64,000 nt of DNA from NCBI GenBank assembly GCA_000004985.1, contig GG738852.1, one strand, 5' to 3'. This DNA is from Naegleria gruberi. Its lineage: Eukaryota. The stretch's first letter is position 1; each line of letters begins with the position of its first letter. Of this stretch, positions 9,576-64,000 are shown in pieces. The notes beneath the pieces are model-generated. The model searched no databases. It worked only from the letters and a program-made list of their open reading frames with translations, and was not told the origin of the DNA. A program made the translations under genes and the position numbers.

Positions 9576-12500
9576 TTATTGATCTGGTTGTACATAATGC
9601 AAACTTGCAATAATGACACTTACGTTGTCACCACTATTTCTATTGAAAATAGAATGATTTACCAAGTTTTTGGCAATGATATTGAAATCTTTAACTCGAT
9701 GATGATAGTATTGTTTGTAAATATAATCAGCAACATCACTGTTGTTCATTACATCAAACAAACCATCACTAGCTATGACGATTAAGGTTGGTAAACTTGG
9801 AGTAACACTTGAAAACATTACATCCTTTCCATCTTTGTCATCCTTACGTTTTTCAACTACCTTTTTAGGTTTTTCCAAGTGAATCTTGTGCTTTACAACC
9901 TCAGGGAGAGCAACAACTGCTTGCTTTCTTAAATTAGTATTTTGAATTGGTTGAGTGAGACCAACATTGATTGCACCATTGGTACTTGTTGGATCTGGAT
10001 TATTCTTTGCATAATAATCTCCAAATGTTCTAGAAACAGCCAATCCACAAACACGATTATTTTCAACACGAGATCCAAACATTTCAATTCTTCTCTTTTC
10101 TTGTTCATAGGTTGGTTTATGATCACTGGAGAGAGGAATAATCTTTGACAAGTGAATCATAAAAGCACGACTATCACCAACGTTTGCGCAAGTTACATAG
10201 TATGTATTGGCTTCCTCCTCACTAGCAGTGATAAACACAGTGCAGCCTGTTGAACCAGCACATGCCATAATACCACTAGTTGTTCTTGGAGAAGGAACAC
10301 CCTTTTTAACAGAGAGATTGGTTCTATATTGGTCTATAACCTTTTCACGATATTGTTCATCAACCTTAATGAATGCATACTCAAGAAGATCTCTTCTGGA
10401 GAATATTGGCTCATGGATATTAAATACCAATGATTGATAATTTTCCAAGTGATAGATAAAGTTTTGATACAAATAGTCAGCACATTCAGCACCACCATGT
10501 CCATCAAATACACAAAGTACTGCAGCTTTTTGATTGTGGAAATTTTCAAATGACTTATTTACAAAATAAACACGATCTTCCATATAGTTTCTCTTTCCTC
10601 TTTCTTGAGCACAGCTGATAGCAAGTGGGAGTTGCTTCTTTTCAAAATCGAATATGGATTGTGATGGAGATTCTGTTGGATTTGCTGTGGTATTGTTATT
10701 GTTACCTGGAGTACTTCCTGGAGGAGGCATTGTATTTGGGGAAATGCCATGAGTCTTTTTCTTTGGTGTTACTTGAAGTGGGTCACGCCAAATAAAAGGA
10801 ATTACACTTGTAGAGGCATTTGATTCAGAATCTGATTGGGATTGTTGGACAGAGGTGACATGGTGATTAAGGAATTTAAAGATGGATTGTTCAGCTTGTC
10901 TATAATAGTCCATTTGGGATGGATGTTTGAGAAGATTGAGATCTTTGCAAAGGTCATTACATTGATGTTTGGAGAAGAATCTCTTCACTTCTGTATACTC
11001 GGAAAAGTTGTTGCTGTCGTTAGATTTTTTAGATTGAGGAGAACTTGGCTCGGTCAACTCGGTTGGTGATTTGATAGATTTCTTAGCTGAGGCACCTCCA
11101 CCATTATCAAATATTCTACAATCGAATTTTCCGAAAAGATAACTGCCATAACAGAACATTTCGTTTGCTTCAAAAACAAATGTTCCTTTAGATTCTAAAA
11201 AGATAAAATGGAAAAGAGATTCAGCAACAAAATTACTGGTATGTCTTGGAGGTAGGCAAGCCATCTTTTCACCATGTTTTTCATCAGTAGGATCGAGATA
11301 TGGATATTCTACAAAAGGATAGGCAATTAAGGTTACTTCTTCAACATCAGGGGATGGTGTTACAATACTTGGATTAGATACAGCACCAGTCTTTGGATCA
11401 TAATGTAATCTATATACATTGTAGAAAAGAGAAAAATTCTTTTGTACCTTAGAGTTATAAAGTTGTAAGTAATAGTTCAAATGTGTCAAAACATTGACTG
11501 GATCGTATTTTTGATGACGAGTGTTGATTCTTGTACCATGGAAAGTAAGTCCATTCATTGAAAGATCTTTGATAAAAACTGAATTAGGGAAGGAAGATGT
11601 CTTGGACGGTGTACCTGGTTGTTTTGTTTTAGAATCAGTACTCTTTTCAGTATTCTTACTCTTATCTCTATAATAGAGAACAATATCATGATAAAGTAAT
11701 GAGTTTGCATTTGAAGGATTGGTCATTCCTGAGCTACTGTTATTGGAAATGTAAGTCATTACTTCTGAAACATTGTACTTGTAAATGTAATGTGGGTCAT
11801 TACTAGTATTTTTCCAAAATGTATTATTCTTATTGGCTTCTGCTAATGAGGATGCAATTCCGCTATCTCTACTCTTACTTCTAGATAATCCAGATGGGAT
11901 GGAAGTGGAACTGGCCAATGTATTAATATTACTTCCACTGTTAGAGTGTGAAAGTGTTGGATTACTTGTGGAATGTGAAAGTGGTGTTCCATTTTGAATT
12001 TGTAAAGCACTTGGTAAATATCCAATTTGTTGAAGTGGACTTCCTTCATAGCAAGGAAAACATACAGCTTTGGATTTGTATTCTAAAAATCCTGAAGAGC
12101 TTGATGTTGAAGAAATGTTGTGAAGACTCATGGATGGTGAAATTGAAGGGATACTACTATCACTCTCAGAACCTCCATTTGATTCGCTTGTAATGGTTGA
12201 CAAATTACTATTTTCACTGGTGGATCGACTGATACGTTGCTCATCTTTAGCTTTTTTCTCTTGGTGAGCCATACATAAATGGTTTGTTAAAACACTAGGA
12301 ACATTTGAAAAGTTTGTAAAGGTAAATGCCAAATGTTTAGATTGATTATGTTGTTGAGAATTGCTTGGAGGTACTAGAGGGCTTGCATCAATTGTAGAAA
12401 TATTTGGAGTGGAGGTACTATTCGGAAGTGTCCCACTCGAAGAGGTTGGAATCAAAGGAGTTGAAGTACTTTTCACAATTGCAAATTGTGTAATATTATT

Positions 12501-12986
12501 TCCAGAAGTTGATGGAGGAAGGCTACTATTAACTTGATTTGATCCCGAATTTGTATTTGGGAAGGGTGATTGTGAGGAAGATGTAGTTGTTGGAGAAGCA
12601 GAAGAAATTGTCAATGATACTGGTTGATCCATCTTTAAACTACCTCTATTATTTGGAGTGGAAATAGTTCCCATAGAGGTTGTTGCAGTACCTCCAAAGC
12701 TTTTAGTTCTCGAGTGAAATATTGGCATTTTGTGCATAATCGTCTTGACCAAACCTTCAGATGATTGATTGGAACCTATTCCTTGACCTAATTGTATTGG
12801 AGGAGCTGTTGAGTTTGAAGAAGAAGAAGAAGGCGAAACAGATCCTTGGTTATTTCCCTTGTTCAAAATGATTGATGCCGTGCCTGACTTTAAAGAAGAA
12901 GTAATATTATTCATGTTTGGTGGAGGTGGCATTTTGAATTCTGAATTGTTATTTGATGATGTATTATTATTATTATTGTTACTCAT
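9576..12986 (-). CDS. Protein phosphatase 2C (PPM family) with a long low-complexity N-terminal region
   Basis: 1136-aa ORF from an ATG (MSNNNNNNTSSNNNSEF...). The N-terminal half is S/T/N/P-rich low complexity. The C-terminal ~330 aa carry PP2C motifs (ERGKRNYMEDRVYF, CVFDGHGGAECADY, GSTGCTVFIT, NVGDSRAF, IASDGLFDVM). Confidence 0.8.
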   Translation of the reverse strand: MSNNNNNNTSSNNNSEFKMPPPPNMNNITSSLKSGTASIILNKGNNQGSVSPSSSSSNSTAPPIQLGQGIGSNQSSEGLVKTIMHKMPIFHSRTKSFGGTATTSMGTISTPNNRGSLKMDQPVSLTISSASPTTTSSSQSPFPNTNSGSNQVNSSLPPSTSGNNITQFAIVKSTSTPLIPTSSSGTLPNSTSTPNISTIDASPLVPPSNSQQHNQSKHLAFTFTNFSNVPSVLTNHLCMAHQEKKAKDEQRISRSTSENSNLSTITSESNGGSESDSSIPSISPSMSLHNISSTSSSSGFLEYKSKAVCFPCYEGSPLQQIGYLPSALQIQNGTPLSHSTSNPTLSHSNSGSNINTLASSTSIPSGLSRSKSRDSGIASSLAEANKNNTFWKNTSNDPHYIYKYNVSEVMTYISNNSSSGMTNPSNANSLLYHDIVLYYRDKSKNTEKSTDSKTKQPGTPSKTSSFPNSVFIKDLSMNGLTFHGTRINTRHQKYDPVNVLTHLNYYLQLYNSKVQKNFSLFYNVYRLHYDPKTGAVSNPSIVTPSPDVEEVTLIAYPFVEYPYLDPTDEKHGEKMACLPPRHTSNFVAESLFHFIFLESKGTFVFEANEMFCYGSYLFGKFDCRIFDNGGGASAKKSIKSPTELTEPSSPQSKKSNDSNNFSEYTEVKRFFSKHQCNDLCKDLNLLKHPSQMDYYRQAEQSIFKFLNHHVTSVQQSQSDSESNASTSVIPFIWRDPLQVTPKKKTHGISPNTMPPPGSTPGNNNNTTANPTESPSQSIFDFEKKQLPLAISCAQERGKRNYMEDRVYFVNKSFENFHNQKAAVLCVFDGHGGAECADYLYQNFIYHLENYQSLVFNIHEPIFSRRDLLEYAFIKVDEQYREKVIDQYRTNLSVKKGVPSPRTTSGIMACAGSTGCTVFITASEEEANTYYVTCANVGDSRAFMIHLSKIIPLSSDHKPTYEQEKRRIEMFGSRVENNRVCGLAVSRTFGDYYAKNNPDPTSTNGAINVGLTQPIQNTNLRKQAVVALPEVVKHKIHLEKPKKVVEKRKDDKDGKDVMFSSVTPSLPTLIVIASDGLFDVMNNSDVADYIYKQYYHHRVKDFNIIAKNLVNHSIFNRNSGDNVSVIIASLHYVQPDQ

Positions 12987-13649
12987 GATGATACTATAAA
13001 ATTATTATTCTTTGTTGATGATGTATTTTCTTTGAAGTGTAATAGAAGCTTATGTGCTCTTTGGGATAATGAATATTTGTAAAAATAGCAAATATCTTAT
13101 TTCCGTACTTGTTAATTACAGAATATGATGATTACTCTAAAAACTCGGTAAATTGGTCTTCGATGATTAAATCATTCAATGTAAAAAGACCTGTAGGAAA
13201 GGTCCAGAAATGTACAAGTGTTTGGTGTTGGTGATTTTTTAAAAAAGAAAACTCCAACGGTAGAGTTTGCTGTATTTTTTATTCGAGTTGGATCTTTTAT
13301 GGTAGACGCACCTTATTTATTTTATTGAGAAAGCTGCATAATCTGTCTGTTGAGAGTATTGATTGATCTTTCAGAGTATTGATTATTGAGTGACGTATTG
13401 CATGAAAATCAGCAATGTAGATTGAACCTCTCATATCATCCTAAGAATACTCCCTAGTTAATGATTGAATAGGTTTGGAAATCGCAAAAGAACTGTATAA
13501 TACTATTATTACCCAAACATTATCTATTATGGTCGAATGATACTTAGGGAGAGTCAATGGTTTACTTTAAAATATCTATTAGCAAGATATTTTCTCTGAA
13601 CTGTCACTTGAAAGATATTCTGTTCATTCCTTGCCTTATTCTCAAAAAA

Positions 13650-14360: not shown

Positions 14361-16739
14361 TCACTCCTCTATCCTATTCATTATGTTTCTGATTCTTTCA
14401 AAGTGATGCTGCTTTCTAAGCTTTAGAATATCAATAGTTTCACCCTTTTCATTCTTGTTATTGTCCTTAATTTCCATATTGAGTAGTTCCCTTTCATTTT
14501 TCAAATAATCTTCAATGGCAGCAATGACCTCTTCATAGCTTAACATTTTTTCATTATGTAATTTTCTCTTTCCAAAGGCGTGAAACGTAAGGAACTGAGC
14601 AAATTTTTTGGTGTCAATCTCTGAAAGCATAAAAGATGTGGCAATTAATGATGACCTGTCATTTGATTTGGTATGGATTGTAAATGGTCTATATTGATTT
14701 TCGATAGGATTATCCAATATATCTTCGCCTGTTCCATTCAATATTTCCATTGAATCTCCATTGGTAGGTAAGGAAGGCTCGACGGTACCTGTTGGTGGTG
14801 CTACTTGGAGAATACTGGAGGTTGTTTCTTCCTTTTTAGAGGATTTGACTTGTTCAAGCATACATTTGACTATCCTTTCAACTTGTTGTTCCTGATCCAA
14901 ACGATTTCCAATAGATTGCCCATGCTTGTAGACATATTGTAATTGCTGTTCTACAGTTTCAATAAATATTCCATCTGGTTCATTTCGAGTTTGGAGAGGC
15001 ATTTCAGTAAATTCGCTAGAAGATCCATGCCAATGAACGATAGGAGTTTCCAGAGATCTGATGTTGATTCCAGAATATTGATTGGAAAAGAACCTTCTTC
15101 GATGATCTTTGGAAGGCTCTGCCCTATCATATTGACTTGTCACAGTTCCATACTTGGAGGAATACTTGTTAATGGCTGTTTCTCTCTCTTTAAAATAGTA
15201 ATACTCATTATTTCCAATAATGGGTGTCTTCAAATAAGAGTTTCCTTTTCCACTGTAGCTTCTTGTTAAAATGCATTGATTTTGTTGGGAGGCATCAACC
15301 TCAATAGCATCCAATGGAATGTCATCATTTACCTCCTCGTAATTGATCTGTGGTCTCCTTCTTCTTGTTTTTGTGGAGGAGGCTTCATCTGTTGAGGAGG
15401 AGGATGAAGAGCGTGTAGATTTCCTCTTCTTGCTTGATTTACCTGTTCCTCTTTCGCTGTTATAATTGCTAATGATTTCAGATCGTTTGAGTTTTTTCAG
15501 TTTAACCTTCTTTGTATCTGCATCTTTGTGTATTGGAATTGTTGGTTGGTTTGAGAGTCTCACTAATCTGAATTTATAGACATAGGCACCGTTCTTTCCA
15601 TTGGGGAGAATTTGGCGTTCTTTCCAATAGTTGGTAACCCAATACAGTCCATCATATCTATATCCGCTTATTGGTGCATACTTTTCCTGCAATTGAAATC
15701 CTCTAACAACTCTTACTGGAGTTTTAGAGGTCATATTGATTGTTAAACTTTTGTTCACACTGTTAAGTGTTTGATCAGATGTTTCTGACCCACCCTGTCC
15801 TGTATAAATCATAATGTCTCCCATATCCTCATCACCATATCCACCCATAGAGGATGCAACAATTGATTCGGCAGCCTCTCCATTGTTACCATTTCCGAAA
15901 ATACCACACTGTGGTGGACGATGGGTCTTTGACTTGGAACATTGAATACGTTTTTCATATGTAGTGAAAACAGGTTCGACATGTCCATAAAGTTTTCCTG
16001 AATCATCTGGACTTTCATTGATATGAGTCCATTTAGTAGCATCTCCAATTGATTTCTTGTCTAGATCTGTAATATAATTTGCTCTCTTGTTTTTTTCGTC
16101 TTCATCAAGATCTGAATAGTTTACATCTTCTTCCTCCTCTTCTTCATCATCTTCCTGTTCTTCCATTGGAGTTGTGACTTGTGACTCTTCACTTGGTTCG
16201 AAAGAGAAGGTTACAGTTTTTGCAATTGGGCTAAAATGTGAATCACTTGTTTGATGAGAATTGGTTGACGAAATTGGAGAGAGGGGAGGAACTACCACTT
16301 CAACAGTTTGAGTACTAGGTTTTGAATCTCGAATAATTAATGGCCTTTCTAATGTAAGTGGTTTTTGAGGTGTCGTAGATTGCTTATTCTTCCTTCTGAC
16401 AGATCTTGTCCTTTTAGGTGGCTCATTAAAAGCCTCCTCAAGTGTTAAAAATTCATCCAGATCGTTCTCATCAGTTGGAATAAACCCTGTTGACGGATTC
16501 TGCTGAGCAGTCATGTTGAAAAGTGTTAAATTCGAAATTCCACTATTCTGAGGGGGAAGATCCTCTTCCGACAAATCACTCAAAGTAGTGGGAGATTCAA
16601 AAGAGTTATTCATTGATTTTCCAATATCCATAAAATGTGACGATGAGTCTTCATCATCGGGAAAGGGTGATTGATCACCTACGTCAATATAAATCGGCTG
16701 ATTTTCCAATTTTTCAAATAATGTTCTTTGTATCCGCAT
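14361..16739 (-). CDS. SRA (SET-and-RING-associated, YDG) domain protein
   Basis: 792 aa from an ATG. The central region GIFGNGNNGEAAESIVASSMGGYGDEDMGDIMIYTGQGG...PVRVVRGFQL...GYRYDGLYWVTNYWKERQILPNGKNGAYVYKFRLVRL has the SRA/YDG signature (YDGxY, VRVxRG, YTGxGG). It is flanked by an acidic N-terminus, basic NLS-like stretches (KKVKLKKLKRSE, KSSKKRKSTR, TRRRRPQ) and an unassigned C-terminal domain. Confidence 0.6.
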   Translation of the reverse strand: MRIQRTLFEKLENQPIYIDVGDQSPFPDDEDSSSHFMDIGKSMNNSFESPTTLSDLSEEDLPPQNSGISNLTLFNMTAQQNPSTGFIPTDENDLDEFLTLEEAFNEPPKRTRSVRRKNKQSTTPQKPLTLERPLIIRDSKPSTQTVEVVVPPLSPISSTNSHQTSDSHFSPIAKTVTFSFEPSEESQVTTPMEEQEDDEEEEEEDVNYSDLDEDEKNKRANYITDLDKKSIGDATKWTHINESPDDSGKLYGHVEPVFTTYEKRIQCSKSKTHRPPQCGIFGNGNNGEAAESIVASSMGGYGDEDMGDIMIYTGQGGSETSDQTLNSVNKSLTINMTSKTPVRVVRGFQLQEKYAPISGYRYDGLYWVTNYWKERQILPNGKNGAYVYKFRLVRLSNQPTIPIHKDADTKKVKLKKLKRSEIISNYNSERGTGKSSKKRKSTRSSSSSSTDEASSTKTRRRRPQINYEEVNDDIPLDAIEVDASQQNQCILTRSYSGKGNSYLKTPIIGNNEYYYFKERETAINKYSSKYGTVTSQYDRAEPSKDHRRRFFSNQYSGINIRSLETPIVHWHGSSSEFTEMPLQTRNEPDGIFIETVEQQLQYVYKHGQSIGNRLDQEQQVERIVKCMLEQVKSSKKEETTSSILQVAPPTGTVEPSLPTNGDSMEILNGTGEDILDNPIENQYRPFTIHTKSNDRSSLIATSFMLSEIDTKKFAQFLTFHAFGKRKLHNEKMLSYEEVIAAIEDYLKNERELLNMEIKDNNKNEKGETIDILKLRKQHHFERIRNIMNRIEE

Positions 16740-39107: not shown

Positions 39108-40037
39108 ATGTACAATCTCGAAGACAAGAATGTTCTTGATATTGATACAAGACAAGAAAGACCAACACGCCCAATAGTTTCTTACTTTTCACTTGAGGGA
39201 GATCAGGAGTATATCGACATTGAGATTTACAATGCCACTCTTGAAGAGAGCTCAATTCTCAAATACAAACGGGATATGGCTGTTAAAGGATTTTATTTCG
39301 ATCCAAAATATCAACGTAATTACAGGAGAATTTACACAGAGAGAGGAGCAGAAATATTCGGTTTACAAGAAATGAATTTTGTGAGGAGAGTTAAAATTGT
39401 TGGATTTCCAAAATTCAATCAAAAGAAGAGAAAAATCAAGAAACTAATGGAAACTTGGGGTCATAGTAAGGATGAAATTGATTTTTGTTTGGCAAGTTGC
39501 CGATTCGATTATCAAATTGATAGTGATGACAACCTGATAATACAAGTTTCAAATTTGATTGAAGCGATCAATTTTAATCCAATTGAAATTCACACCAGTT
39601 CAATGATCCCTTGTAACATTTCAGATGCACTCTCAGAGGAAGTTCAGGATAAATTCGAACAAATAGAAGAATTAGTTGTCAATATTGATTTAAAGGATGA
39701 TGTTATTGAATATTTGGAAAAATCCAAGTCAGTCTCTGCTTTGAGATTTTCTGGAAGAGCAAATGGGAAAACACTCAGAACCAGAGGTTTGGATATTCTT
39801 GCCCTGTTGAATGATATGAGTTCTACGACAAGTGAAGCTCCAGGAGAACCCCAACTCGACGAAGCAGAATCAGATCATCAAGACAATAAGAGAGGTCGAG
39901 ATGAATTTGAAGATGAAGATGTTTACAATACATCTCCACCAAGGAAGTGTAGTCCTCCACAAAAGCCCTCTCCACCACTCATTACAAAATCAGTAACATT
40001 TCGAACACAAGAGCAAATAGAAGAGTATTTTGACTGA
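39108..40037 (+). CDS. Hypothetical protein
   Basis: The track ORF starts at a TTG (39084). The first ATG gives MYNLEDKNVLD.... It is hydrophilic with an acidic/Pro-rich C-terminus and no recognised domain. Confidence 0.3.
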   Translation: MYNLEDKNVLDIDTRQERPTRPIVSYFSLEGDQEYIDIEIYNATLEESSILKYKRDMAVKGFYFDPKYQRNYRRIYTERGAEIFGLQEMNFVRRVKIVGFPKFNQKKRKIKKLMETWGHSKDEIDFCLASCRFDYQIDSDDNLIIQVSNLIEAINFNPIEIHTSSMIPCNISDALSEEVQDKFEQIEELVVNIDLKDDVIEYLEKSKSVSALRFSGRANGKTLRTRGLDILALLNDMSSTTSEAPGEPQLDEAESDHQDNKRGRDEFEDEDVYNTSPPRKCSPPQKPSPPLITKSVTFRTQEQIEEYFD

Positions 40038-40170
40038 TTGAACGTCTAAATTTGGAAAATTACCATTGCATATAATCTCAAAATGTTAAATTCCAAATCT
40101 GTCCGAGGGAACATATAACCATGCTAACCTTGTCAGAATATGGAAAATAAGCAAAAACAAAAAGAAAGAC

Positions 40171-41979
40171 ATGAAACGAATCAATAACAAGGTTATCTTT
40201 CTAATAGCTACTGTAATTGTAGCTTTGCTTGCATTAGGAGTTTCCGTCTCCTTGCAACAACAAGTATCTGCTCAAGCAGGTGCCCAAGCTAGTAGTAGTG
40301 GTGCTTCTGTTAATGCTGGAGGCCAAGCCAGTGCTGGAAATCAGAATAACACTCAAGGTGGTGGACAAGGGCAAGGACAAGGACAGCAACAAGGTGGCAC
40401 ACAAGGACAGAACAATACATCTACTCAAGAGTTGAACAAGTTTTTGAATCGTATTGATACTGATTTGAGAATGATTGGAAGCTTTATTGATAGATGTGCA
40501 GGTTTGCAGCAACAAGGCCCAGGTGGTCAACAAGGTGGTCAACCAGGTGGTCCTGGACAAGGACAATTTGGTCAACCAGGCGGACAAGGTGGAATGCCAC
40601 AACAACCTCAACCAATTCAAGACCAAGGACCTCCAACTCAACAACAACAACCTGAATCTATGTGGTATTCAATGTTGGGAATGATTGGCTTACAACAATC
40701 TCCTCAACCACAACTTTCTGCCCAACAACAATTCCCACAACCTTCTCCTCAACCACAGCAATCACCAGCTCAAGCTCAGCAATCACCACAACCTCAACAA
40801 TCACCGGTTCAAGCCCAACCATCTCCACAACCACAGCAATCACCAGCCCAACCTCAACAATCACCACAACCTCAACAATCACCAGTTCAAGCCCAACCTT
40901 CTCCACAACCTTCTACAGTTGGAGCTGGTGCTGGTAGTCAAGAAACTAGACAACAAATTGCTTGTGGAATTGTTACCAAGGCTGCCACTAACTTGTTGAA
41001 TAATACCATGAGTTTAGTTTCCACTGTTAGTAACAATACCCAAATCAGCTCATCACTCAAGCAAGCTGTTGCTCAATTGCTTATTAAGGCAAATTTATTG
41101 TCTTCCAATGCCAAGAATTCAAGTTGGACCAATTTCCTTACCTCATTTGATCAATATGCTGTTAGTTTCTCAGCCTTGCAACAATCTCTCTCCAGACGTC
41201 AACAACAAGGCGGCCAACAAGGAGGACAAGGACAACAAGGCGGCCAACAAGGTGGCCAACAACAAGGTGGTCAAGGACAGCAAGGTGGTCAATTCGGTCC
41301 TCCACAACAAGGTGGTCAACAAGGACAATTTGTGCCACCTCAACAACAAGGTGGTCAACAAGGTCAATTCGGTCAGGGACAACAACAAGGCGGTCAACAA
41401 GGCCAATTCCCTCCACAACAAGGTCAAGATCAACAACAATATTCCTATCCACAACAAGGTGGTCAACAAGGTCAACAATATCCACAACAGCCTTATCAAG
41501 GACAATATGGTCAAGGACAACAAGGAGGTCAACAACAATATCCACAACAGCCTTATCAAGGGCAACAACAATATGGTCAAGCAGGCCAATATGGTCAACA
41601 AGATCAATATGGTCAAGGTCAACAAGGTGGACAACAATATGGTCAACAGTATCCTTACCAAGGACAACAAGGAGGTCAACAACAATATGGCCAAGGTGGA
41701 CAACAATATGGTCAACAAGATCAATACGGTCAAGGACAAAGTCAATACGGTCAACAATATCCACAACAGCCTTATCAAGGTCAACAAGGACAAAGTCAAT
41801 ACGGTCAAGGACAACAAGGAGGTCAACAACAATATCAACCACAGTATCCAACACCTTTCTACCAAAATCCATACCAATACAGAAATCCATACTTTTACCA
41901 AAGCCCAAGTTATCAATACTATCAACCACCACAACAACAACAACAATATGAAGGCTATTATCCAGAATATTATTACTAA
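40171..41979 (+). CDS. Secreted Gln/Gly/Pro/Tyr-rich low-complexity repeat protein (prion-like / glutenin-like composition)
   Basis: From an ATG, with the signal peptide MKRINNKVIFLIATVIVALLALGVSVS. Repeat families are QQSPQPQQSPVQAQPSPQP, GGQQGGQGQQGG and YGQGQQGGQQQYPQQPYQGQ, with a Tyr-rich C-terminus. A non-repetitive core lies at ~aa 250-330. Both strands are open across the repeats. Confidence 0.6.
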   Translation: MKRINNKVIFLIATVIVALLALGVSVSLQQQVSAQAGAQASSSGASVNAGGQASAGNQNNTQGGGQGQGQGQQQGGTQGQNNTSTQELNKFLNRIDTDLRMIGSFIDRCAGLQQQGPGGQQGGQPGGPGQGQFGQPGGQGGMPQQPQPIQDQGPPTQQQQPESMWYSMLGMIGLQQSPQPQLSAQQQFPQPSPQPQQSPAQAQQSPQPQQSPVQAQPSPQPQQSPAQPQQSPQPQQSPVQAQPSPQPSTVGAGAGSQETRQQIACGIVTKAATNLLNNTMSLVSTVSNNTQISSSLKQAVAQLLIKANLLSSNAKNSSWTNFLTSFDQYAVSFSALQQSLSRRQQQGGQQGGQGQQGGQQGGQQQGGQGQQGGQFGPPQQGGQQGQFVPPQQQGGQQGQFGQGQQQGGQQGQFPPQQGQDQQQYSYPQQGGQQGQQYPQQPYQGQYGQGQQGGQQQYPQQPYQGQQQYGQAGQYGQQDQYGQGQQGGQQYGQQYPYQGQQGGQQQYGQGGQQYGQQDQYGQGQSQYGQQYPQQPYQGQQGQSQYGQGQQGGQQQYQPQYPTPFYQNPYQYRNPYFYQSPSYQYYQPPQQQQQYEGYYPEYYY

Positions 41980-42047
41980 ACTAATTGTGAGAAACTAACT
42001 GTACATATTATATACATCTCGTGAGATTAATAAAACTATTTATATAT

Positions 42048-44441
42048 TTACAAATGTCTAAGCTCGTTTGCTTTGATTCTATCATTAGGCTGACACCTTA
42101 ACATTAGGAGAATCATATCAATTGTGTAATTGTCGCATTTATGTCGCTTTGAACGTTTCAAATTCTTCTCTAGCAATTCATGAACACTTTCTTCCAAAGC
42201 AATCTGCACAGAACCATCCCTTACCAACATGGATGCAATTTGAGTTTTCTAATATAATGTCAAACGAAATGATTAAAAAAAAACACTTACAAAATCACCA
42301 GTCAATACTTGATAAAGAGTACAACCTAATGACCAAATATCTGTTGCTTGTGACAATTCTCCCTTTCCACACAATAACTCAGGAGCAAGGAAAAGTTCAG
42401 TTCCTCTCAATCCAGCTTTCGTATTCAATTGAGAATTGGTTTGTTTTGATTGTTGAATAGAGGACGAATTTGGTGAATGCTTGGTAGATTCTCCAAAATC
42501 ACCAATAATTACATGAACCCAATCATTCGCCAAATTGATTTCATCTAGGAATATATTAGTTGGCTTCAAATCATTATGAGTAATAAACTTGACTTCATGC
42601 AAATGGAAGAGAGCATCAGCCAACTGTTGAATTAGAGTTAACATGAGCTTTTTCGAGAAGACAAATTCAGGATGTTTCTCCACAAATGACTTTAAATCGC
42701 CATGTTTGTAATACTGCATTACAAAACAAACTGATTGCAGTAGTGGACTTGGGAAAACATCAAGAACTTGAATAATATGTGGATGTTTGCATTCAATCAT
42801 TCTCATACCTTCCTCTCTAACAGCAGCAACTCTCTGCTCATCAATGTAATGCTCAATCCTAATTGACTTGATGGCTACTTGTGTATTGCTCTTCTCATCG
42901 AGAGCCAAGTAGACATTAGCAAAAGAACCTCTACCAATTAACTTTTCAACCACGTAACGATCTTTAAGTCTGTGATCTGCCTGAAGAGTATAATCTTCAT
43001 CCTCATAACAATCATTATCTGTTCCATCTTCACAAATGGAATCCCTTCGAATGACATTATTCTCAAGTGCTTGAGACTTGTAACTCTCTATTATACTACT
43101 GGCAACATATTCTACTTCACTGGCTCTTCTTAGATGATCATTCTGATCGGTCATATATGGCATTGCATCCACATTTTTCAGATCTTCTCTCTTCTCTGGT
43201 ATGACCACTGTTGGTCGATTTGCAGTCTTGAAACTTGTCTTGATAACTGAAGTATTTTCCTGGAGTGGTGAGGTCATTTGGAGAGATCTCTGTAAAAAGC
43301 TTGATTTGAGTGAGGTAATTTTATCCTCAATGTGTGGACTCTTCTTATCGAAATTAGAGTGCATATTGAATGTACTTGTACTGGATTGAGCAAGTTGTTG
43401 TGGTGGCTTTGGATTTTCAATGTCTTCCTCAATGGAAATCAGAGTTGGATTGTTGCTCAATGTTTGTTGTTGTTCGCTGTGATCCATCATGACAACTGGT
43501 GCATAGGTATTGGAAGGCTCCTTATCCTTCTTTTGCTTCTTTCTAAAACATGACATGACGATCAACAATATGGCTATGATAAGAATGGAAGCCAGAATGA
43601 AAAGTCCAACACCAATCATTCCTGCAATGAGTGCTGATTGATCGACAGTACTTGCCTTGGAGTTTCTCAAAATTTGAACAGAGTATGTGCATGATTCACT
43701 CAGACAACCACTCATCAAGACGACCACATAAATTGTTGCCTGTGGATAGTTAGCATTCTCAATTGGGAGAGTAAAGTTAGATTCCTTCTGAGTAAAGATC
43801 AATCTTTTCTGATAATCATAATTGCCGTTTGGTGTTGCCTTCTTGTTAATACCCACAAACACATCGACATATTCGGTTTTATCAGAGGGAGGTCTTGCAA
43901 TTTGTAAGGTAAATGTATCAGTGGCAAAATTAATACTCGAATCGGAGAAACAATTTGGACAAAAGTAATAATCAGAAAGGAGAGCAGGTGTGGTATAATT
44001 ATTTCCAACTCCCAAACTCAAATACTTGTACAATTGTAAAATGTTGAATTTTGTAAACTCCAAGCTAGAAGCAAGAGGATTGTGAATGACGAGAGAATAA
44101 TCAGTATCATGCTTTGAGAAAGCATAATCTGATTTTGAATAATCTGTTGTACCTGTATCGATAAGGGAAATGATAGAAGTATCTCTTGTTCTATTGAATG
44201 TTGTCAAATTATTCGAAGGCATGTAGCCAATCAAGTATCCTGCAAGGTTGGTTTGAAATTCAAACTTCCAATTACCGTAACCAAAGGGAAATGAAAAATA
44301 ATTATTCGAAGAGAGGCCATAAATTGTGTTTTGTTGTTGAAAACTTGGGTTGACCAAAAGTAATAGACAACCAAGCAAAACAAGAGCCAACAGTGAAGAA
44401 TTGACGATTTGGTGGCGATGAGGATTGATTCTCTTGATCAT
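42048..44441 (-). CDS. Receptor-like transmembrane protein kinase, 2 exons: complement(join(42048..42248,42291..44441)), ~783 aa
   Basis: From an ATG, with a signal peptide, a ~250-aa extracellular domain of unknown type, and the TM LIAGMIGVGLFILASILIIAILLIVM. The kinase domain shows LIGRGSFANVYLALD, VAIKSI, HNDLKPTNIFLD, IGDFGES. A 42-nt intron (GTAAGTG T9 ...TATTAG) separates subdomains X and XI. The second exon restores ...DMILLMLRCQPNDRIKANELRHL*. Confidence 0.7.
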
Positions 44442-45912: not shown

Positions 45913-47991
45913 ATGGAAGACTTTCAGGTAATCGATGATGATGAGGATGGTGAAAGACAAAGTGCACACCAACCTCAACCTCACAGAAGTTCTATTGGGG
46001 GTGGGCAGATAGCGACACTTTCTTCTTCATCAAATTCTATTGTGGATCCCGCAGCCATCAAGACATCATTTTCTCTCTTTTTACAGAACAATGTATTTCC
46101 TTCACAACAAATAACGGAAAGTATTGATTTGACAAATACATTTAGATTGGACGCAGCTCTCTTGAAACAACATGATGTTAAATTGTACAATATTTTGGTA
46201 CAATTTCCAGAGACTGTCATTTCTATTTTCGACGTTGTTATGGCCGAAGAGTGGCATAAACTCAAAGGAGATGAAGCTCAAATTTCTATTACTGTTAATT
46301 TGGATACACTTAAACCAATGAGAGCTTTGAATCCTTGCGATATCGATAGACTTGTTGGAATTCAAGGAATGGTGACTAGATTGAGTGAAATTATTCCAGA
46401 TATGAGAGGAGCTTATTTCAAGTGTTCTGGTTGCAGTGCCTCAAAATATGTCCCTCTTCAACAGGGAAGAGTTAAAGAACCACCAAAATGTACAAGTGAC
46501 ACTTGTTCTGGTTCCACTTGGATTTTAATACACAACAGATGTCAATACTATGATAAACAAGTTATCAAATTGCAAGAAACTCCAGAAAGCATTCCTGAAG
46601 GTGAAACTCCACATACTGTCAATTTGTGTGTTTTTGATAGTCTTACCGATAGTGTTAAACCTGGTGACAGAGTTAAAGTAACTGCAATTTATAGAGCCAT
46701 CCCAATCAGAATCAGTTCCAAACAAAGAAAAGTTAAGAATATTTTCAAAACATATCTAGACGTGTTGGGTTTCGAAAAGATTGGTATCAGTGTTATGAAT
46801 GCAGAACTAACTACTGCGGCAGCCAAAAGTTCATCCTCTCTGGATGATGCCAACGAAGATGAACAACTCTCCAAATTAATGAATATTACTCCATTAGAAG
46901 AAGCAGAAATCAAGCTTCTCTCTGAAAATCCTAATATTTATCAAATGTTACAAGACTCTATTGCACCTGGTGTGTTTGAAATGACCAGTGTTAAAAAGGG
47001 AATACTTTGTCAATTATTTGGAGGTACCAATAAGAAAATACCGAATGGTCAACTGAGAGGAGAAATTCACATTTTACTTTGTGGTGATCCTGGTGTGAGT
47101 AAGTCGCAACTTTTGATACAGGTACACAAAATTGCACCAAGAGGAATTTATACATCAGGTAAAGGAAGTTCAGCTGTTGGTTTGACAGCCTATGTCACTA
47201 AAGATCCTGATTCAGGTGATATGGTTTTAGAATCAGGGGCCCTTGTATTGTCTGATCTTGGTATTTGTTGTATTGACGAATTTGACAAAATGTCTGATCA
47301 AACTAGATCTGTTCTCCACGAAGTCATGGAACAATGTACAGTATCAGTAGCCAAAGCTGGTATTATTTGTACCCTTAATGCTAGAACCTCAATTTTGGCA
47401 GCTGCCAACCCTAAAGAATCTAGATACAACTCCAATCTTTCAATTGTTGAAAATATCCAACTTCCACCTACCCTTTTATCCCGTTTTGATTTAATCTTCC
47501 TTCTTCATGATACTCCAGATAGAGATAGTGACGAAAAGCTAGCCAAACACATTATTTCGCTTCACTTTGATGTTCCAGAACACGACACCTCAACACTGAT
47601 ACCAAAGGAATTATTAGCAAAATATATTGCCTATGCCAGAAATCGTATACATCCTGTCATTACAGATGATGTGAAACACTATTTAGTTGAAGGTTATTTG
47701 GGTCTAAGAAAGTTTGGATCACATAAGAAGAATATCACAGCAACAACCCGTCAGCTCGAATCTCTTATTCGTTTATCTGAAAGTCTTGCCCGTATGAAAC
47801 TGAAACAAAAAGTAGAAAGAGATGACGTAGAAGAGGCAATGAGGCTTGTGAGAGAGTCCATTTTCAAAGCTGCCTTTGATCCAAAGACAGGAACAATTGA
47901 TATAGATCTGTTGCAAACTGGTCGTTCTGCTGCAGACAGAGAATTAAACGATGATGACACTATGGGACTCGACAGAGAAGATGATATGTAA
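45913..47991 (+). CDS. mcm7: DNA replication licensing factor MCM7
   Basis: 692 aa. The Walker A GDPGVSKSQLLIQV is closest to the MCM7 form GDPGVAKSQLLSYI. The MCM box LVLSDLGICCIDEFDKM, LHEVMEQCTVSVAKAGIICTLNARTSILAAANP, LLSRFDLIFLLHDTPDRDSDEKLAKHI and the N-terminal Zn motif CSGCS...CTSDTCSG are collinear with MCM7. An alternative upstream ATG (AAAAAAAATGTTTTCTGG, ~45869) might form a short first exon. Confidence 0.8.
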   Translation: MEDFQVIDDDEDGERQSAHQPQPHRSSIGGGQIATLSSSSNSIVDPAAIKTSFSLFLQNNVFPSQQITESIDLTNTFRLDAALLKQHDVKLYNILVQFPETVISIFDVVMAEEWHKLKGDEAQISITVNLDTLKPMRALNPCDIDRLVGIQGMVTRLSEIIPDMRGAYFKCSGCSASKYVPLQQGRVKEPPKCTSDTCSGSTWILIHNRCQYYDKQVIKLQETPESIPEGETPHTVNLCVFDSLTDSVKPGDRVKVTAIYRAIPIRISSKQRKVKNIFKTYLDVLGFEKIGISVMNAELTTAAAKSSSSLDDANEDEQLSKLMNITPLEEAEIKLLSENPNIYQMLQDSIAPGVFEMTSVKKGILCQLFGGTNKKIPNGQLRGEIHILLCGDPGVSKSQLLIQVHKIAPRGIYTSGKGSSAVGLTAYVTKDPDSGDMVLESGALVLSDLGICCIDEFDKMSDQTRSVLHEVMEQCTVSVAKAGIICTLNARTSILAAANPKESRYNSNLSIVENIQLPPTLLSRFDLIFLLHDTPDRDSDEKLAKHIISLHFDVPEHDTSTLIPKELLAKYIAYARNRIHPVITDDVKHYLVEGYLGLRKFGSHKKNITATTRQLESLIRLSESLARMKLKQKVERDDVEEAMRLVRESIFKAAFDPKTGTIDIDLLQTGRSAADRELNDDDTMGLDREDDM

Positions 47992-59933: not shown

Positions 59934-60823
59934 TTAATTTGCCTTGTAGAGAATTTCATAATGACCTGGTCTGAAGAGGAGGTGAATAATTGGTTCTTCA
60001 CTTGAACCATCTTCAGGAATGGTATAACCAAATATTGATACATCAGATCTTGTTTGAGCATCCAAAACTTCAATTCTAACCTTAACTCCAAATGCTGCTG
60101 CGAGGGCAGTAATATGAATGTTGTCACTGTCCTTTCCCATAATTTCAATTTCTCTCGAACAGAAATCTTTTGCAGTAGCATATTGATCCAAAAAGAATGG
60201 TAAAAAGTCATCAGAGTTCAATTGAATATAACAAGAAAGCAAAAATCTGAAAAAGCAAATGAGAGCATCTGATTCCATCATGGTATCAGGTGTCTTGTCA
60301 CTGAAATAGTTCTCAATAAGAGTATTCACATCAGCAATAGATCCATCCCTTACTAGCTCAAATACTCTCTTGGTTGATTCATAGAAATCTTCAAGACAAT
60401 ACTCTGGATATTTCAAATCATTAATCAATGCATGATAATACTTGTCAATACGTGAAATTATACTTTTTGTCAATTCAGGATTTTTCTGATCAATCAAATA
60501 TTCCAGCAATTCAAACACAAATCCTCTCAAGAAACAATTGCCATCACCTCTAATTCCTCTAATCTTTTTATATTCCTTCATAAATGAAGATTTTTTAATC
60601 TTTTCCTGAACACTTTGATCATGCATGTTGTATGACAATGTTTCAACAGTTAAATTTGAAGCTTCCGGATCAACGATCGGATACTTTTTAATTTCACTCT
60701 CGATATTCTTTTGTTGATTTTCGAATTGTTCATAAGAATAACCAGCAGCTGCAGCAGAGGAACTACACCATTATTATTTTGAGAATTACCAGTGGCGGCA
60801 GCAGGTGGTAGATGTTGACTCAT
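59934..60823 (-). CDS. otub1: Ubiquitin thioesterase OTUB1 (otubain), 2 exons: complement(join(59934..60748,60790..60823)), ~282 aa
   Basis: The OTU core has the catalytic GDGNCFLRGF and ...RPGHYEILYK*. The N-terminal region AAGYSYEQFENQQKNIESEIKKYPIVDPEASNL is collinear with human OTUB1 LAYDEAIMAQQDRIQQEIAVQNPLVSERLEL but has no ATG in that frame. An upstream ATG (MSQHLPPAAAT) joins through a 41-nt intron (GTAATT...CTGCAG) in phase. Exon lengths sum to 849, a multiple of 3. Confidence 0.7.
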
Positions 60824-60925: not shown

Positions 60926-63900
60926 TTATTGGTTATGTGGTGTTTGTTTCTCCAAATGGTCAAGAATGGCTTTGGCTGATGGTCTTGATTGATAATCTTT
61001 GGCCAACATGGAAATTGTTAAATCAATCAAGTCTTGAGAGTATTTTCCAGCGTTTGTTAATTTTTCTTTTAGGAATTCTTTAACAGTTTCTGTTTCTTTC
61101 ATCATGTAGAGTTGACTGATTGAGGTATCTGTATCTTTACTCATAATTTGGTATATAGTCACACCTAAACTGTATATATCAGTTGTTGAATTGTATTTTC
61201 CACCGACTGACATTTCAGGAGACATGAAAAGAGGTGTACCACAGTAAGAAACATTTACAGATCCTTGATTTTGACGAGCTAAACCAAAGTCAGCAACAAT
61301 GATGTGGACATCATTTTCATCGATTGATTTGATAAAAATGTTATTTGGTTTGATATCTCTGTGAATTAATGACATGCTTGAGTGAATGTAATCCAAAGCT
61401 TGACATGATTGATCCAAAATCTTTCTAACTATTATTTCTGAACAGTATCCCTCACACTTGATAAGATTGGTTAAATCTCCCTTTTCATAATAATCCATAT
61501 CAATACACAATAATTGATCATTGTCAACAAAGAATTCATTGACTTTGAGAATGTAAGGGTGATTGATATTCATCAATTGAGCCCCTTCTTTCATAATTGA
61601 ATTCAAATCTTCAAAGGATGTGAATTTCATAACTTTGAGCGCCTTTTCATGGTTGTTTCTACTGTCTGTTGCTCTAAAAACTGATCCAAATCCGCCTTGA
61701 CCAATCTTTGACATGTTTTTATATCTTTGTGAAATTGGATCAGACGAGGTGGATGTATTTGAACCTGCAGAATTGTTGTGGAGTGGAGCAAATGACATAC
61801 TGTTGTTTGATGGGAAATCCAAGGAAGCTGATGTTTGCAATTCAATATAAAAACTATTGTTAGGGAAGTTGGCAGTGTTTTGAGAACTTTGTAACTGTTC
61901 TTTTTGGTGTAATCTTTGTGATTCTTGATCTAATTGTTCCTTCTTTCTCTTTGCCTTGATTCTCAATAAGACAACTATTATTACAATCACAACAATAATA
62001 ATTATCAATAGGAGAATGCCTAGAGAGAGGCCAACACCTAGTCCTATACCAAGAGATTGATCGTCTGTTGTGATTCTCTTTGATACTGTTGGTACTGTCG
62101 GTGTTGATGAAGATGTAGCTTGGCTATCAATTACACCAAAAGAAGTAAGGTGAGTCGTATAACAGTTAATATTGAAATATAAAGTATTAGACTCATTCTT
62201 GGTTAAAACAAAGTTAGTAGTTAATCCATCATAGGCCCACTTATTATTGGTTGTATCATAATATGTACAGGTAATGTTACTAGTAGAATTGGCCTTATAC
62301 ACCAAGTTATTGAAATTGATTACAATCTTATTGTTAAGCTTGTTAACTTTAACTAAAGCACCACTCAATTGAACAGAAATATCAATCAGAGGACTAATCA
62401 GGTCAGAAGATACGTATGAAGAGTAGCTAATATCATAAGAAAGAGTATTGTCGAAACCAAGAGCAGATAATTGACTTGAAAAATCAGATGGGAATACTAC
62501 ATTGGTTCCAATCATGGAAACAGCCTTTCCATCCAATTGGTTTAGCAACAATCCTGTTTGCATGTTTGTTTCTCCTTGAGGCAAATCTGTGTGAATAATA
62601 GAGTTGCCAGTAGTATTAGAACTTTGAGAAATTAACAACTTATTCAAGTTGGCCATATTATTGACGAATGGAGCAGGGGAAGAAACGGTGCTCATAATAT
62701 TGAACAAATCTACAATCTCATTGTAATGTTCATTGTCAATAATGAAAGGAAGAACTGAAGGGGAGTAAATATTTGAGGATGCACTAATACTCGAAAAGAT
62801 GTAAGTCATCCAAGATGAAAGACTTGAACTTTGAGTGGAAACAGTGCTTGGTGATAGCGTATTCAATAATACATAGATTGTTCTCAAGGGTGGAACGACC
62901 AAGGCAATAATCTTCTCATCGACGTTATAACCTGTGTTCTTCATTTGATACAGAACTGAACTCATATCAACCAATAATACTACTATTTGATTGGAGGTTG
63001 TTGAATCAAGTAAAGAAGGCAATAGGGCTATTGGAGTGTCTTGAATAAATAAGGACAACAAGGATGAGATATAATTTGCTGTATAAATAGAAATTTGCTT
63101 TTGAGATTTCAACAGTTGATATTGAGTATTGAGATAGTTATATCTGGAAGTGAATGAATTATCAGCAGCAAGACCAGAGGGCAATTTTACAACAATGTTG
63201 TACTTAGCAATTGCTAAAGAACCACTTGTTGTTACAAGCTTGACAATTACATTTAAATTTCCACCATTAACAAATGGAAGTGGTGTTACAGTTACTGATT
63301 TTGGAGTGTTTGAAAGAATTCCAACTCTTGAAGTACCATTATTAACTTGCATAATGAAACCAGATATCTTCTCCTTATTATTCACACACGAAATGACAAA
63401 TGAAGTTTCATAGGCAACATTTGAATTCAAAGGATCATATAATTGGCAACTGAATCTTGGCATCAAATCAACAGTTGTGATCACATTTGCAGATGATTGA
63501 CCTTGCCCATTTGTTACCTTCAATTGAATCTTGTAGTTCTCTCCCTGAATCAATCTAGAACTATCTATCAACAAGTTACTTTGAATGTTGGTTGAAAATG
63601 CAGTATTCCTTGCCGATTGTTGTATAACAGCTGAAACACTATTCTCACCATTGAAAAGTTTGATTGTTCCTTGAATCAATTCCCATTTCAATTCAGAAAT
63701 AGTTGATGCAGAGGTTATAGTGGCCTGAATTAACAAACTCTTTCCGTAAGGATAAACGTCTGGAATGGTATTTAGTTTAATGGCGGGAACATTCTGAGGT
63801 ACATTTACAACACTGATTGTTCCGCTCAGAGTCTGACTAGCTATACCAGAAACCGAAGCAGTTAAACTGATAGTGTAATCTCCTACAGGTAAATTACCAG

Positions 63901-64000
63901 CACCAATTGTCAATGTGTTTGTTGTTCCACTGCAAATGCTTGCAGAAATTTGCTGCTTGGTCTGCTTATCAAAACATGACCAGGAGTATTGAAGTGGAGT
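60926..64000 (-). CDS. Receptor-like transmembrane protein kinase with large extracellular region and GPS(GAIN)-like motif; N-terminus beyond window end
   Basis: The frame is open from the window end (the track start at 63913 is a TTG). The extracellular part exceeds 640 aa, is beta-rich and repetitive, and is followed by CTYYDTTNNKWAYDGL...NCYTTHLTSFGVI (GPS-like HLT/S motif). The TM is GLGVGLSLGILLLIIIIVVIVIIVVLL. The kinase domain has IGQGGFGSVFRA, ALKVM, HRDIKPNNIFI, VADFGLAR and ends at a stop at 60926. Confidence 0.7.
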   Translation of the reverse strand, partial: TPLQYSWSCFDKQTKQQISASICSGTTNTLTIGAGNLPVGDYTISLTASVSGIASQTLSGTISVVNVPQNVPAIKLNTIPDVYPYGKSLLIQATITSASTISELKWELIQGTIKLFNGENSVSAVIQQSARNTAFSTNIQSNLLIDSSRLIQGENYKIQLKVTNGQGQSSANVITTVDLMPRFSCQLYDPLNSNVAYETSFVISCVNNKEKISGFIMQVNNGTSRVGILSNTPKSVTVTPLPFVNGGNLNVIVKLVTTSGSLAIAKYNIVVKLPSGLAADNSFTSRYNYLNTQYQLLKSQKQISIYTANYISSLLSLFIQDTPIALLPSLLDSTTSNQIVVLLVDMSSVLYQMKNTGYNVDEKIIALVVPPLRTIYVLLNTLSPSTVSTQSSSLSSWMTYIFSSISASSNIYSPSVLPFIIDNEHYNEIVDLFNIMSTVSSPAPFVNNMANLNKLLISQSSNTTGNSIIHTDLPQGETNMQTGLLLNQLDGKAVSMIGTNVVFPSDFSSQLSALGFDNTLSYDISYSSYVSSDLISPLIDISVQLSGALVKVNKLNNKIVINFNNLVYKANSTSNITCTYYDTTNNKWAYDGLTTNFVLTKNESNTLYFNINCYTTHLTSFGVIDSQATSSSTPTVPTVSKRITTDDQSLGIGLGVGLSLGILLLIIIIVVIVIIVVLLRIKAKRKKEQLDQESQRLHQKEQLQSSQNTANFPNNSFYIELQTSASLDFPSNNSMSFAPLHNNSAGSNTSTSSDPISQRYKNMSKIGQGGFGSVFRATDSRNNHEKALKVMKFTSFEDLNSIMKEGAQLMNINHPYILKVNEFFVDNDQLLCIDMDYYEKGDLTNLIKCEGYCSEIIVRKILDQSCQALDYIHSSMSLIHRDIKPNNIFIKSIDENDVHIIVADFGLARQNQGSVNVSYCGTPLFMSPEMSVGGKYNSTTDIYSLGVTIYQIMSKDTDTSISQLYMMKETETVKEFLKEKLTNAGKYSQDLIDLTISMLAKDYQSRPSAKAILDHLEKQTPHNQ

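Follow-up and report, generated by a model that had tools for sequence, protein, structure and literature searches.

The 64,000-nucleotide stretch of Naegleria gruberi contig GG738852.1 analyzed here (the window) ends in the gene of a predicted receptor kinase, in which a very probable GAIN domain stands between the outer part of the ectodomain and the membrane. The gene occupies positions 60926..64000 of the minus strand as a 5'-partial coding sequence. Direct translation gives a reading frame that is unbroken over 1024 codons up to its stop codon (60926-60928) and that remains open as far as the edge of the window. An earlier note on this DNA, made from its letters alone, had described the gene as running off the window with its N-terminus unseen, and this is correct: the 5' end lies beyond position 64000. 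All features of the gene given below are on the minus strand, and residues are counted from the first visible codon.

The visible protein begins with three tandem beta-sandwich modules of an Ig/FnIII/PKD-like kind (residues 1-270, 63191..64000), which are probably homologous to part of the REJ region of proteins that combine REJ and GPS. They are followed by a helical subdomain (residues 275-460, 62621..63178) and a beta-sandwich (residues 479-625, 62126..62566), assigned as GAIN subdomains A and B, respectively. Subdomain A is enlarged, with about ten helices, and the GPS strands form the end of subdomain B. Next come a Ser/Thr/Pro-rich extracellular stalk (residues 626-650, 62051..62125; DSQATSSSTPTVPTVSKRITTDDQSL), a single transmembrane helix recognized by its hydrophobicity (residues 651-679, 61964..62050) with a basic stop-transfer stretch, RIKAKRKK, directly after it, a low-complexity stretch of about 80 residues, and a cytoplasmic Ser/Thr kinase domain (residues 760-1016, 60953..61723; Pfam Pkinase E 4.2e-52, with its catalytic motifs).

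The transmembrane segment is the sole strongly hydrophobic stretch among the 1024 residues, with Kyte-Doolittle values of up to 3.98; the second 19-residue window above the 1.6 cut-off, at residue 364, lies inside the helical subdomain and passes barely, at 1.74. No Pfam match to a 7tm domain was found after the GAIN domain, where one strongly hydrophobic segment is followed by the kinase, and neither a PLAT domain nor an 11-helix (11TM)/TRP-like channel region was found after the GPS. T619, the residue after the predicted scissile bond, is separated from the start of the transmembrane helix at residue 651 by 31 residues, and thus the GAIN domain is immediately N-terminal to the helix. The same arrangement, with a transmembrane segment after the GPS, is seen in all homologues aligned. 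The visible ectodomain has six cysteines, which group locally in twos (9/23, 185/205 and 578/613), a pattern expected of an extracellular, disulfide-bonded region. As the earlier note remarked, a GPS/GAIN unit joined to a protein kinase is an unusual architecture, and here the unit is found directly before a single transmembrane helix and an active-looking kinase, outside the 7TM and 11TM contexts. We consider it reasonably likely that the gene encodes a large receptor Ser/Thr kinase of type I, visible here in its C-terminal part of about 1000 residues, with polycystin-like, REJ-like modules and a membrane-proximal GAIN domain.

The GPS motif and the GAIN domain

The extracellular region ends in the pattern CTYYD..W..DG..C(613)YTTHL↓TSFGVI (residues 578-624, 62129..62269; peptide CTYYDTTNNKWAYDGLTTNFVLTKNESNTLYFNINCYTTHLTSFGVI), in which the arrow marks the predicted scissile bond. 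The Cys/Trp/HL-T/F motif that had been read from the letters before the transmembrane helix is very probably a real GPS within a full GAIN-like domain. The pattern C..[WYF]..W..G..C...HL[ST].F has a single match when the window is translated in six frames, against a mean of 0.0 per shuffle over 200 shuffles. It should be noted that chance is excluded more strongly by the conservation of the motif in homologues than by the shuffle test. Another GPS-like tblastn match in the window, at 13244-13342 (E 0.8), falls in no open reading frame of at least 60 residues and was treated as chance.

When the segment is searched in isolation, Pfam GPS (PF01825) is its top Pfam match, at 18.0 bits (E 0.0043), yet this is below the cut-off of 22.5 bits; the Pfam GPS alignment spans positions 2-45 of the 45-position model. 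The corresponding segments of four kinase-linked homologues likewise have Pfam GPS as their top Pfam match (15.0-20.9 bits), all below the threshold. Since every kinase-linked member stays under it, the family escapes routine annotation. The threshold is passed by shorter Naegleria relatives that carry NHL or EGF repeats, a GPS and a transmembrane segment without a kinase, namely P0009 (32.1 bits), whose UniProt name is 'GAIN-B domain-containing', and P0011 (25.0 bits). Two more distant relatives, P0014 (REJ 1.7e-47, GPS 38.6 bits) and P0017 (REJ 9e-19, GPS 30.0 bits), match both Pfam REJ and Pfam GPS. A scan with NCBIfam returned generic kinase matches only, all below their own cut-offs.

The relation to known GAIN domains was examined with a family profile, built from the window sequence and 12 Naegleria-type sequences (13 rows), none of which has a canonical four-cysteine GPS, and searched against all PDB sequences. 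The top five matches are GAIN domains from adhesion G protein-coupled receptors (adhesion GPCRs): ADGRG6 (3.1e-4), ADGRG1 (2.7e-3), ADGRG3 (6.9e-3) and ADGRL3 (0.016 and 0.035). The alignments are in register at the first Cys, the next aromatic residue, the Trp, the Gly, the Cys at -6 and the HL↓T.F site, and H617-L618↓T619 is aligned with HL↓T of ADGRG1, ADGRG3 and ADGRL3. In the case of ADGRG6, the alignment covers profile positions 57-326, reaching into the helical part. METTL21C, the lone PDB match of a single-sequence phmmer search with the ectodomain (E 0.8), was rejected as a relative and is spurious.

In GAIN domains, which measure about 320 residues in all, subdomain A is N-terminal and helical, and subdomain B is a C-terminal twisted beta-sandwich (PMC3321182). 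The same two-subdomain fold is seen in an AlphaFold2 model of the region (mfb6aeef7f07c), which was made from the 13-row alignment with no templates and in which a model residue plus 269 gives the protein residue. The model has a mean predicted local distance difference test score (pLDDT) of 77, a helical subdomain at model residues 6-191, where the helices mostly score 80-97, and a beta-sandwich at 210-356; the stalk scores below 50. HL↓T is placed in the tight turn that joins the final pair of strands in the prediction (model E337-346 and E351-356). In a Foldseek search against the PDB, the top and sole significant match is the GAIN domain of CD97 (E 4.8e-4, probability 1.00), with low TM-scores of 0.26/0.38. 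The other Foldseek matches, interleaved with it, are helical-repeat proteins, evidently matching subdomain A. The model and its Foldseek match therefore agree with the GAIN-like fold that the earlier note had proposed.

The region upstream of the GAIN domain was absent from that note, as was the finding that, of the two canonical disulfides of the GPS, the protein retains one. Over these 270 residues, beta-sandwich modules of a REJ/PKD-like type are predicted. Residues 1-277 align within the Pfam REJ domains of P0014 and P0017, with library-wide E-values of 2.7e-5 and 7.9e-4, respectively; Pfam REJ has no direct match to the window protein, and the REJ homology is transitive only, through these two proteins. 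A nine-sequence profile of the region finds the PKD domains of KIAA0319L in the PDB (E 2.5e-7), while comparison of the REJ-like model with the PDB returns generic Ig/FnIII/PKD folds. In its predicted modules, the membrane-proximal ectodomain thus resembles the REJ plus GAIN arrangement of polycystin-1-type proteins more than the HormR plus GAIN arrangement of many adhesion GPCRs. P0014 (from a Logan assembly, 1938 residues) has the layout TIG, REJ, GPS and IQ motif, and P0017 (from a EukProt transcriptome, 2601 residues) has REJ, GPS and PDZ. Judging from such non-canonical layouts, the cytoplasmic part joined to the REJ-GAIN unit seems to differ from protein to protein outside animals, with several kinds in use.

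The receptor family and predicted self-cleavage

The kinase domain has the motifs GQGGFGSV (767), ALK/VMK (787-792), HRDIKPNN (880), DFG (904) and SPE (927), so that the Gly-rich loop, the catalytic Lys, HRD...N, DFG and APE elements expected of an active kinase can all be recognized in its sequence. Pfam Pkinase scores 177.6 bits against 107.9 bits for PK_Tyr_Ser-Thr, a margin of about 70 bits. The best 60 PDB matches listed are STE20 kinases (MST3/STK24 at 1.2e-29, MST4, STK25 and HPK1), CDPK/CAMK kinases, NEK1 and PKA, with MST3, CDPK1 and NEK1 as the best relatives, and no TKL kinase is among them. The TKL type suggested in the earlier note is thus not borne out, the matches being of STE20, CAMK, NEK and AGC kinds with Pkinase outscoring PK_Tyr_Ser-Thr. 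On these PDB and Pfam matches, the domain is placed closest to STE20/CAMK/NEK kinases.

In order to find relatives of the ectodomain, residues 1-640 were used as the query of an exhaustive HMMER search against 1.84 billion representative proteins, which gave 17 matches. The top four (E 3e-87 to 5e-58, 30-36% identity) cover nearly the whole query and are proteins of 2142-2807 residues: one N. fowleri cluster that includes FDP41_013523 (A0A6A5C4P6), with a representative of 2142 residues and FDP41_013523 itself of 2266, and the N. gruberi NAEGRDRAFT_49308 cluster, NAEGRDRAFT_70916 and NAEGRDRAFT_70317. Their Pfam layout is teneurin-type NHL repeats, 6-10 EGF repeats, an unannotated part of about 650 residues that matches the query, a transmembrane segment and Pkinase. 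Three of the four begin with a hydrophobic stretch that, judged by eye rather than by a predictor, looks like a signal peptide. In the kinase domain, identity to the window protein is 59% (FDP41_013523), 55-56% and 40%. From this shared layout and similarity, the window gene is placed among the very large type I receptor kinases that make up a small family in Naegleria, with N. fowleri FDP41_013523 its closest relative and probable orthologue. Because the homologues have 2142-2807 residues and their match to the visible protein starts at residues of about 1110-1880, some 1100-1250 N-terminal residues probably lie beyond the window.

The named ectodomain homologues in this search are all from Naegleria, and the MCM4 protein encoded in the window is 100% identical to an N. 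gruberi protein, so the dictyostelid setting assumed in the earlier note does not apply. A relationship to the dictyostelid GDT/DRK receptor kinases was accordingly considered and dropped: no ectodomain homologue could be linked to a dictyostelid, and the DNA is that of N. gruberi.

Within the GAIN region, conservation is concentrated at the GPS. In a 391-residue GAIN alignment of sequences 23-34% identical to the window protein, the columns conserved in at least 90% are only I559, C578, Y580, W588, G592, C613, H617, L618 and F621, all of them in or beside the GPS. His(-2) and Leu(-1) are invariant in 14 of the 14 aligned family members and position +1 is either Thr or Ser; Phe at +3 is likewise invariant. 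The catalytic consensus His(-2)-Leu(-1)↓Thr/Ser/Cys(+1) between the last two strands is present as H617-L618↓T619 (62144..62152; codons CAC CTT ACT). The Cys, His, Leu and Thr/Ser residues on which the earlier note's reading depended are therefore retained in the homologues. According to a 2026 study, cleavage depends, beyond HxS/T, on an aromatic residue at S10.49, by which the catalytic His is held in position, and on Gly at S12.49 (PMC13062082). Both are found here, as Y580 (aligned with the Phe of CSFW in ADGRL3) and G592 (aligned with the Gly of GC). Rat latrophilin-1 (CL1) has disulfides C801-C832 and C820-C834, with HL↓T at 836-838 (PMC3321182), and the equivalents of C801 and C832 are retained as C578 and C613 (-6).

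On the basis of these residues, the odds seem to lean somewhat towards self-cleavage of this GAIN domain. During biosynthesis, in the secretory pathway, it would cut itself between L618 and T619, with H617 acting as the base, T619 as the nucleophile, and Y580 and G592 positioning the histidine. Cleavage is predicted to leave the peptide TSFGVIDSQATSSSTPTVPTVSK, beginning TSFGVIDSQ, as a new N-terminus, for which the counterpart in N. fowleri FDP41_013523 is TSFSVMNIPQPEQSQR. The large adhesive N-terminal fragment would stay non-covalently bound on the last strand, TSFGVID, of a C-terminal fragment made up of stalk, transmembrane helix and kinase. Speculatively, binding of a ligand to the NHL/EGF part, or a mechanical pull on it, might remove or shift the N-terminal fragment, and its loss might relieve a steric restraint on the stalk and transmembrane helix so that kinase domains could associate and trans-activate. 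Since a tethered agonist would have no 7TM pocket to enter, the GAIN domain might serve not to hold an agonist but as a mechanical fuse or an autoinhibitory cap. We tentatively propose a functioning autoproteolytic 'mechanical fuse', by which the Ser/Thr kinase is activated as the NHL/EGF fragment is shed, in a module that was free-standing and shuffled early, although we would give this full reading clearly less than an even chance.

Several points weigh against the reading of the gene as a receptor kinase with a self-cleaving GAIN domain. The equivalents of C820 and C834 are replaced by L593 and T615, so of the two disulfides holding the scissile turn one is gone; the first Trp of the GPS (S10.50) is replaced by Tyr (Y581), while the second (W588) is kept. 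The canonical set of two disulfides and two Trp residues is thus incomplete. GAIN domains with a perfect HLS or HLT may stay uncleaved, for example those of ADGRB2 and ADGRB3 (PMC13062082). Whole-protein Pfam GPS scoring reaches 13.5 bits (E 0.11), below the cut-off, the Pfam GAIN model has no match to this protein, and the training set of AlphaFold2 included GAIN structures. Furthermore, the N-terminal half is unseen, its probable NHL and EGF content being extrapolated from the paralogues, and the activation mechanism is conjecture.

The points on cleavage would be accommodated if the GAIN fold were real and catalytically silent, a rigid membrane-proximal stalk or spacer in an ordinary ligand-dimerised receptor kinase that is never split into N- and C-terminal fragments. 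Uncleaved domains with an intact HxS/T, as in ADGRB2/B3, provide a precedent, and the silent domain would also fit the Tyr in place of the first Trp, the atypically large subdomain A, and the loss across the whole Naegleria family of the C2-C4 disulfide that pins the scissile turn (all four cysteines are kept in P0014 and P0017). However, the best-conserved columns at 23-34% identity are His -2, Leu -1, Thr/Ser +1, Phe +3, the S10.49 aromatic residue and the S12.49 Gly, which would be hard to explain were catalysis irrelevant, and +1 alternates solely between the two possible hydroxyl nucleophiles. We regard a silent domain as unlikely, though it is the main alternative and to be taken seriously.

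A fortuitous Cys/Trp/HLT pattern in an unrelated Ser/Asn/Thr-rich ectodomain that has no GAIN domain is very improbable. It could draw on the whole-protein Pfam result, on the presence of only two of the four canonical cysteines, and on the single-sequence phmmer search against the PDB, which found no GAIN domain. Nevertheless, the motif is kept in every homologue aligned and was found 0 times in the 200 shuffles, and the five highest PDB matches of the family profile are adhesion GPCR GAIN domains. Relatives score above the Pfam GPS threshold, and farther ones combine REJ with GPS. In addition, the two missing cysteines are exactly those bonded to each other in CL1, and such a coordinated loss supports homology. 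The GPS/GAIN assignment of the earlier note stands at the level of the family, where the profile is significant against the PDB (E 3e-4) and P0009 and P0011 pass Pfam; the single sequence is sub-threshold on Pfam GPS and unmatched by the GAIN model. An assembly or gene-model artefact, or a pseudogene, in which ectodomain and kinase are not one functional protein, is scarcely credible: the N-terminus is outside the window and the exact protein was not found in the protein collections searched, but the frame is open over all 1024 codons at a genome GC of about 33-35%, the domain order is identical in N. fowleri and three N. gruberi paralogues, and all kinase catalytic motifs are intact.

If the mechanical-fuse reading is true, the occurrence of the domain in a discoban (Heterolobosea) would mean that, early in eukaryotes and before the holozoan GAIN-7TM fusion, GAIN existed on its own as a signalling module that was shuffled, and kinases would be a further class of GAIN effector beside the 7TM parts of adhesion GPCRs and Naegleria 7TM-RGS proteins and the 11TM parts of polycystins. 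The receptor also offers a natural test of the role of GAIN cleavage in a protein with no tethered-agonist pocket, in which mechanical release, autoinhibition and agonist presentation can be set against each other. As the probable orthologue, FDP41_013523, is found in the lethal pathogen N. fowleri, members of the family are candidates for a sensor or adhesion kinase at its surface.

Neighbouring genes

The window is gene-dense, with long intron-poor open reading frames and a GC content of about 32-37%, features that agree with N. gruberi as the source. The neighbours of the receptor kinase gene are ordinary: otubain, a cyclin, a PAP2-family protein, a Vps4-like AAA ATPase, malate/lactate dehydrogenase, a prenyltransferase, an SRA-domain protein, PP2C and a DUF4116 protein. 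The otubain (Peptidase_C65) gene, at 59934-60823 on the minus strand, lies about 100 bp downstream of the receptor kinase stop codon. Its ATG-initiated reading frame of 57 residues (60650-60823) and its main reading frame (59934-60638) are in different frames, which points to a short intron or frame change around 60640-60780.

A second kinase gene is found at 42273-44441 on the minus strand. Its 722-residue reading frame carries Pkinase at residues 496-717, covering profile positions 1-195 of 263, and a tblastn match at 42051-42968 gives the remaining kinase downstream, with 28% identity to the domain of the receptor kinase. Such a split suggests an intron or frame change near 42270. The ectodomain of the receptor kinase has no similarity to this gene.

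The MCM4 orthologue (45913-47991, plus strand) shares 100% identity, across 87% of its length, with a 602-residue 'partial' N. gruberi model, and is 85%, 84% and 74% identical to the proteins of N. lovaniensis, N. fowleri and Willaertia magna, respectively. As its reading frame has 692 residues, the public model seems to be N-terminally truncated. An NHL-EGF-GPS family member and MCM4 are on contigs of equal listed size in N. fowleri (P0018/P0024, 840,394 bp) and in N. lovaniensis (P0008/P0023, 778,173 bp), with locus tags about 65-170 apart. The two genes thus probably share a contig in both species, a loose echo of the linkage in the window.

At 40001-42000, GC peaks at 0.42 compared with about 0.33 elsewhere, with a strong AT skew. 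Four overlapping reading frames of more than 250 residues are found in this region (40171-41979 and 41069-41998 on the plus strand, 41162-41932 and 41170-41946 on the minus strand), and that of 602 residues at 40171-41979 has no Pfam domain. The region is probably a low-complexity or repeat-rich coding region. Three further genes are on the minus strand: 14361-16739 encodes a 792-residue protein with a SAD/SRA domain (Pfam E 1.4e-33), a family that binds methylated cytosine in DNA; 4992-6800 encodes a 602-residue protein of DUF4116 repeats (E 2.6e-71, five stretches); and 9576-12986 encodes a 1136-residue PP2C phosphatase, whose Ser/Asn/Thr-rich N-terminal extension of about 790 residues has no recognised domain.

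Comparison with known systems

GAIN has been described as confined to adhesion GPCRs and PKD1-like proteins (PMC11697300). Outside holozoans, it has been noted for Dictyostelium and Tetrahymena (PMC3321182), and GPS motifs have been noted on 7TM-RGS proteins of N. fowleri (PMC9283941). In the literature searched, the coverage of which is incomplete and hence weak evidence, we found no description of a GAIN/GPS unit before a single transmembrane helix and a kinase, and 'GAIN domain' together with Naegleria gave no match; domain databases may list the architecture.

With the adhesion GPCRs (ADGRL1/latrophilin, ADGRG1, ADGRG6 and CD97), the window protein shares a two-subdomain GAIN-like fold before the membrane, HL↓T in the last inter-strand turn, the S10.49 aromatic residue and the S12.49 Gly, and, in its Naegleria homologues, an EGF-rich adhesive N-terminus. 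The strand after the site, T-x-F-[AG]-V-[IL], here TSFGVI, resembles the TxFAVLM tethered-agonist consensus (PMC12716839). Unlike these receptors, which couple a 7TM part to G proteins, it has one transmembrane helix, a cytoplasmic kinase and no tethered-agonist pocket, as well as one GPS disulfide of two, Tyr for Trp at S10.50 and a larger helical subdomain. An origin in stem holozoans is inferred for the GAIN-7TM module (PMC12716839), whereas the host here is a heterolobosean, outside the holozoans.

Polycystin-1, PKDREJ and the sea-urchin REJ proteins, which combine REJ, GAIN/GPS and 11TM, have REJ/PKD-like beta-sandwich modules directly upstream of the GAIN domain, as is predicted for the window protein, and its enlarged subdomain A is reminiscent of GAIN models of the PKD1 type, for which as many as eight helices are reported (PMC11697300). 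The Naegleria protein differs in having a kinase in place of the PLAT and 11TM/channel-like regions, and in a REJ homology that is only transitive.

Other Naegleria proteins can also be compared. The NHL-EGF-GAIN-TM-kinase proteins are 30-36% identical in the ectodomain and 40-59% in the kinase, and share the module order and the two-cysteine GPS. The window protein differs from them in its unseen N-terminus; the entries are unnamed or called 'predicted protein', and none has been studied. N. lovaniensis proteins such as C9374_007198, C9374_013475 and C9374_007585 (the last named 'GAIN-B domain-containing') have NHL/EGF repeats upstream of a two-cysteine GPS and a transmembrane segment. However, their cytoplasmic tails are short, with no kinase, and the helical subdomain and REJ-like part are missing from the alignments. 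The 7TM-RGS proteins of N. fowleri (PMC9283941), from the same genus, also join a GPS and an EGF-rich ectodomain to a non-canonical cytoplasmic effector, although there the membrane part is 7TM and the effector an RGS box, compared with the single helix and kinase of the window protein.

Finally, single-pass receptor Ser/Thr kinases such as the Dictyostelium GDT/DRK kinases, Entamoeba TMKs and plant RLKs have the same general plan of signal peptide, ectodomain, one transmembrane helix and kinase (PMC1420674). The GDT/DRK kinases are TKL, which the window kinase is not, and the terms GPS, REJ and polycystin each occur 0 times in that kinome paper. The presence of GAIN before a single transmembrane helix and a kinase, in a small family of heterolobosean paralogues, suggests a module more portable than the GAIN-7TM link implies. 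Taken together, these comparisons show an autoproteolytic module and an effector that are each known, while their combination and the lineage are new.

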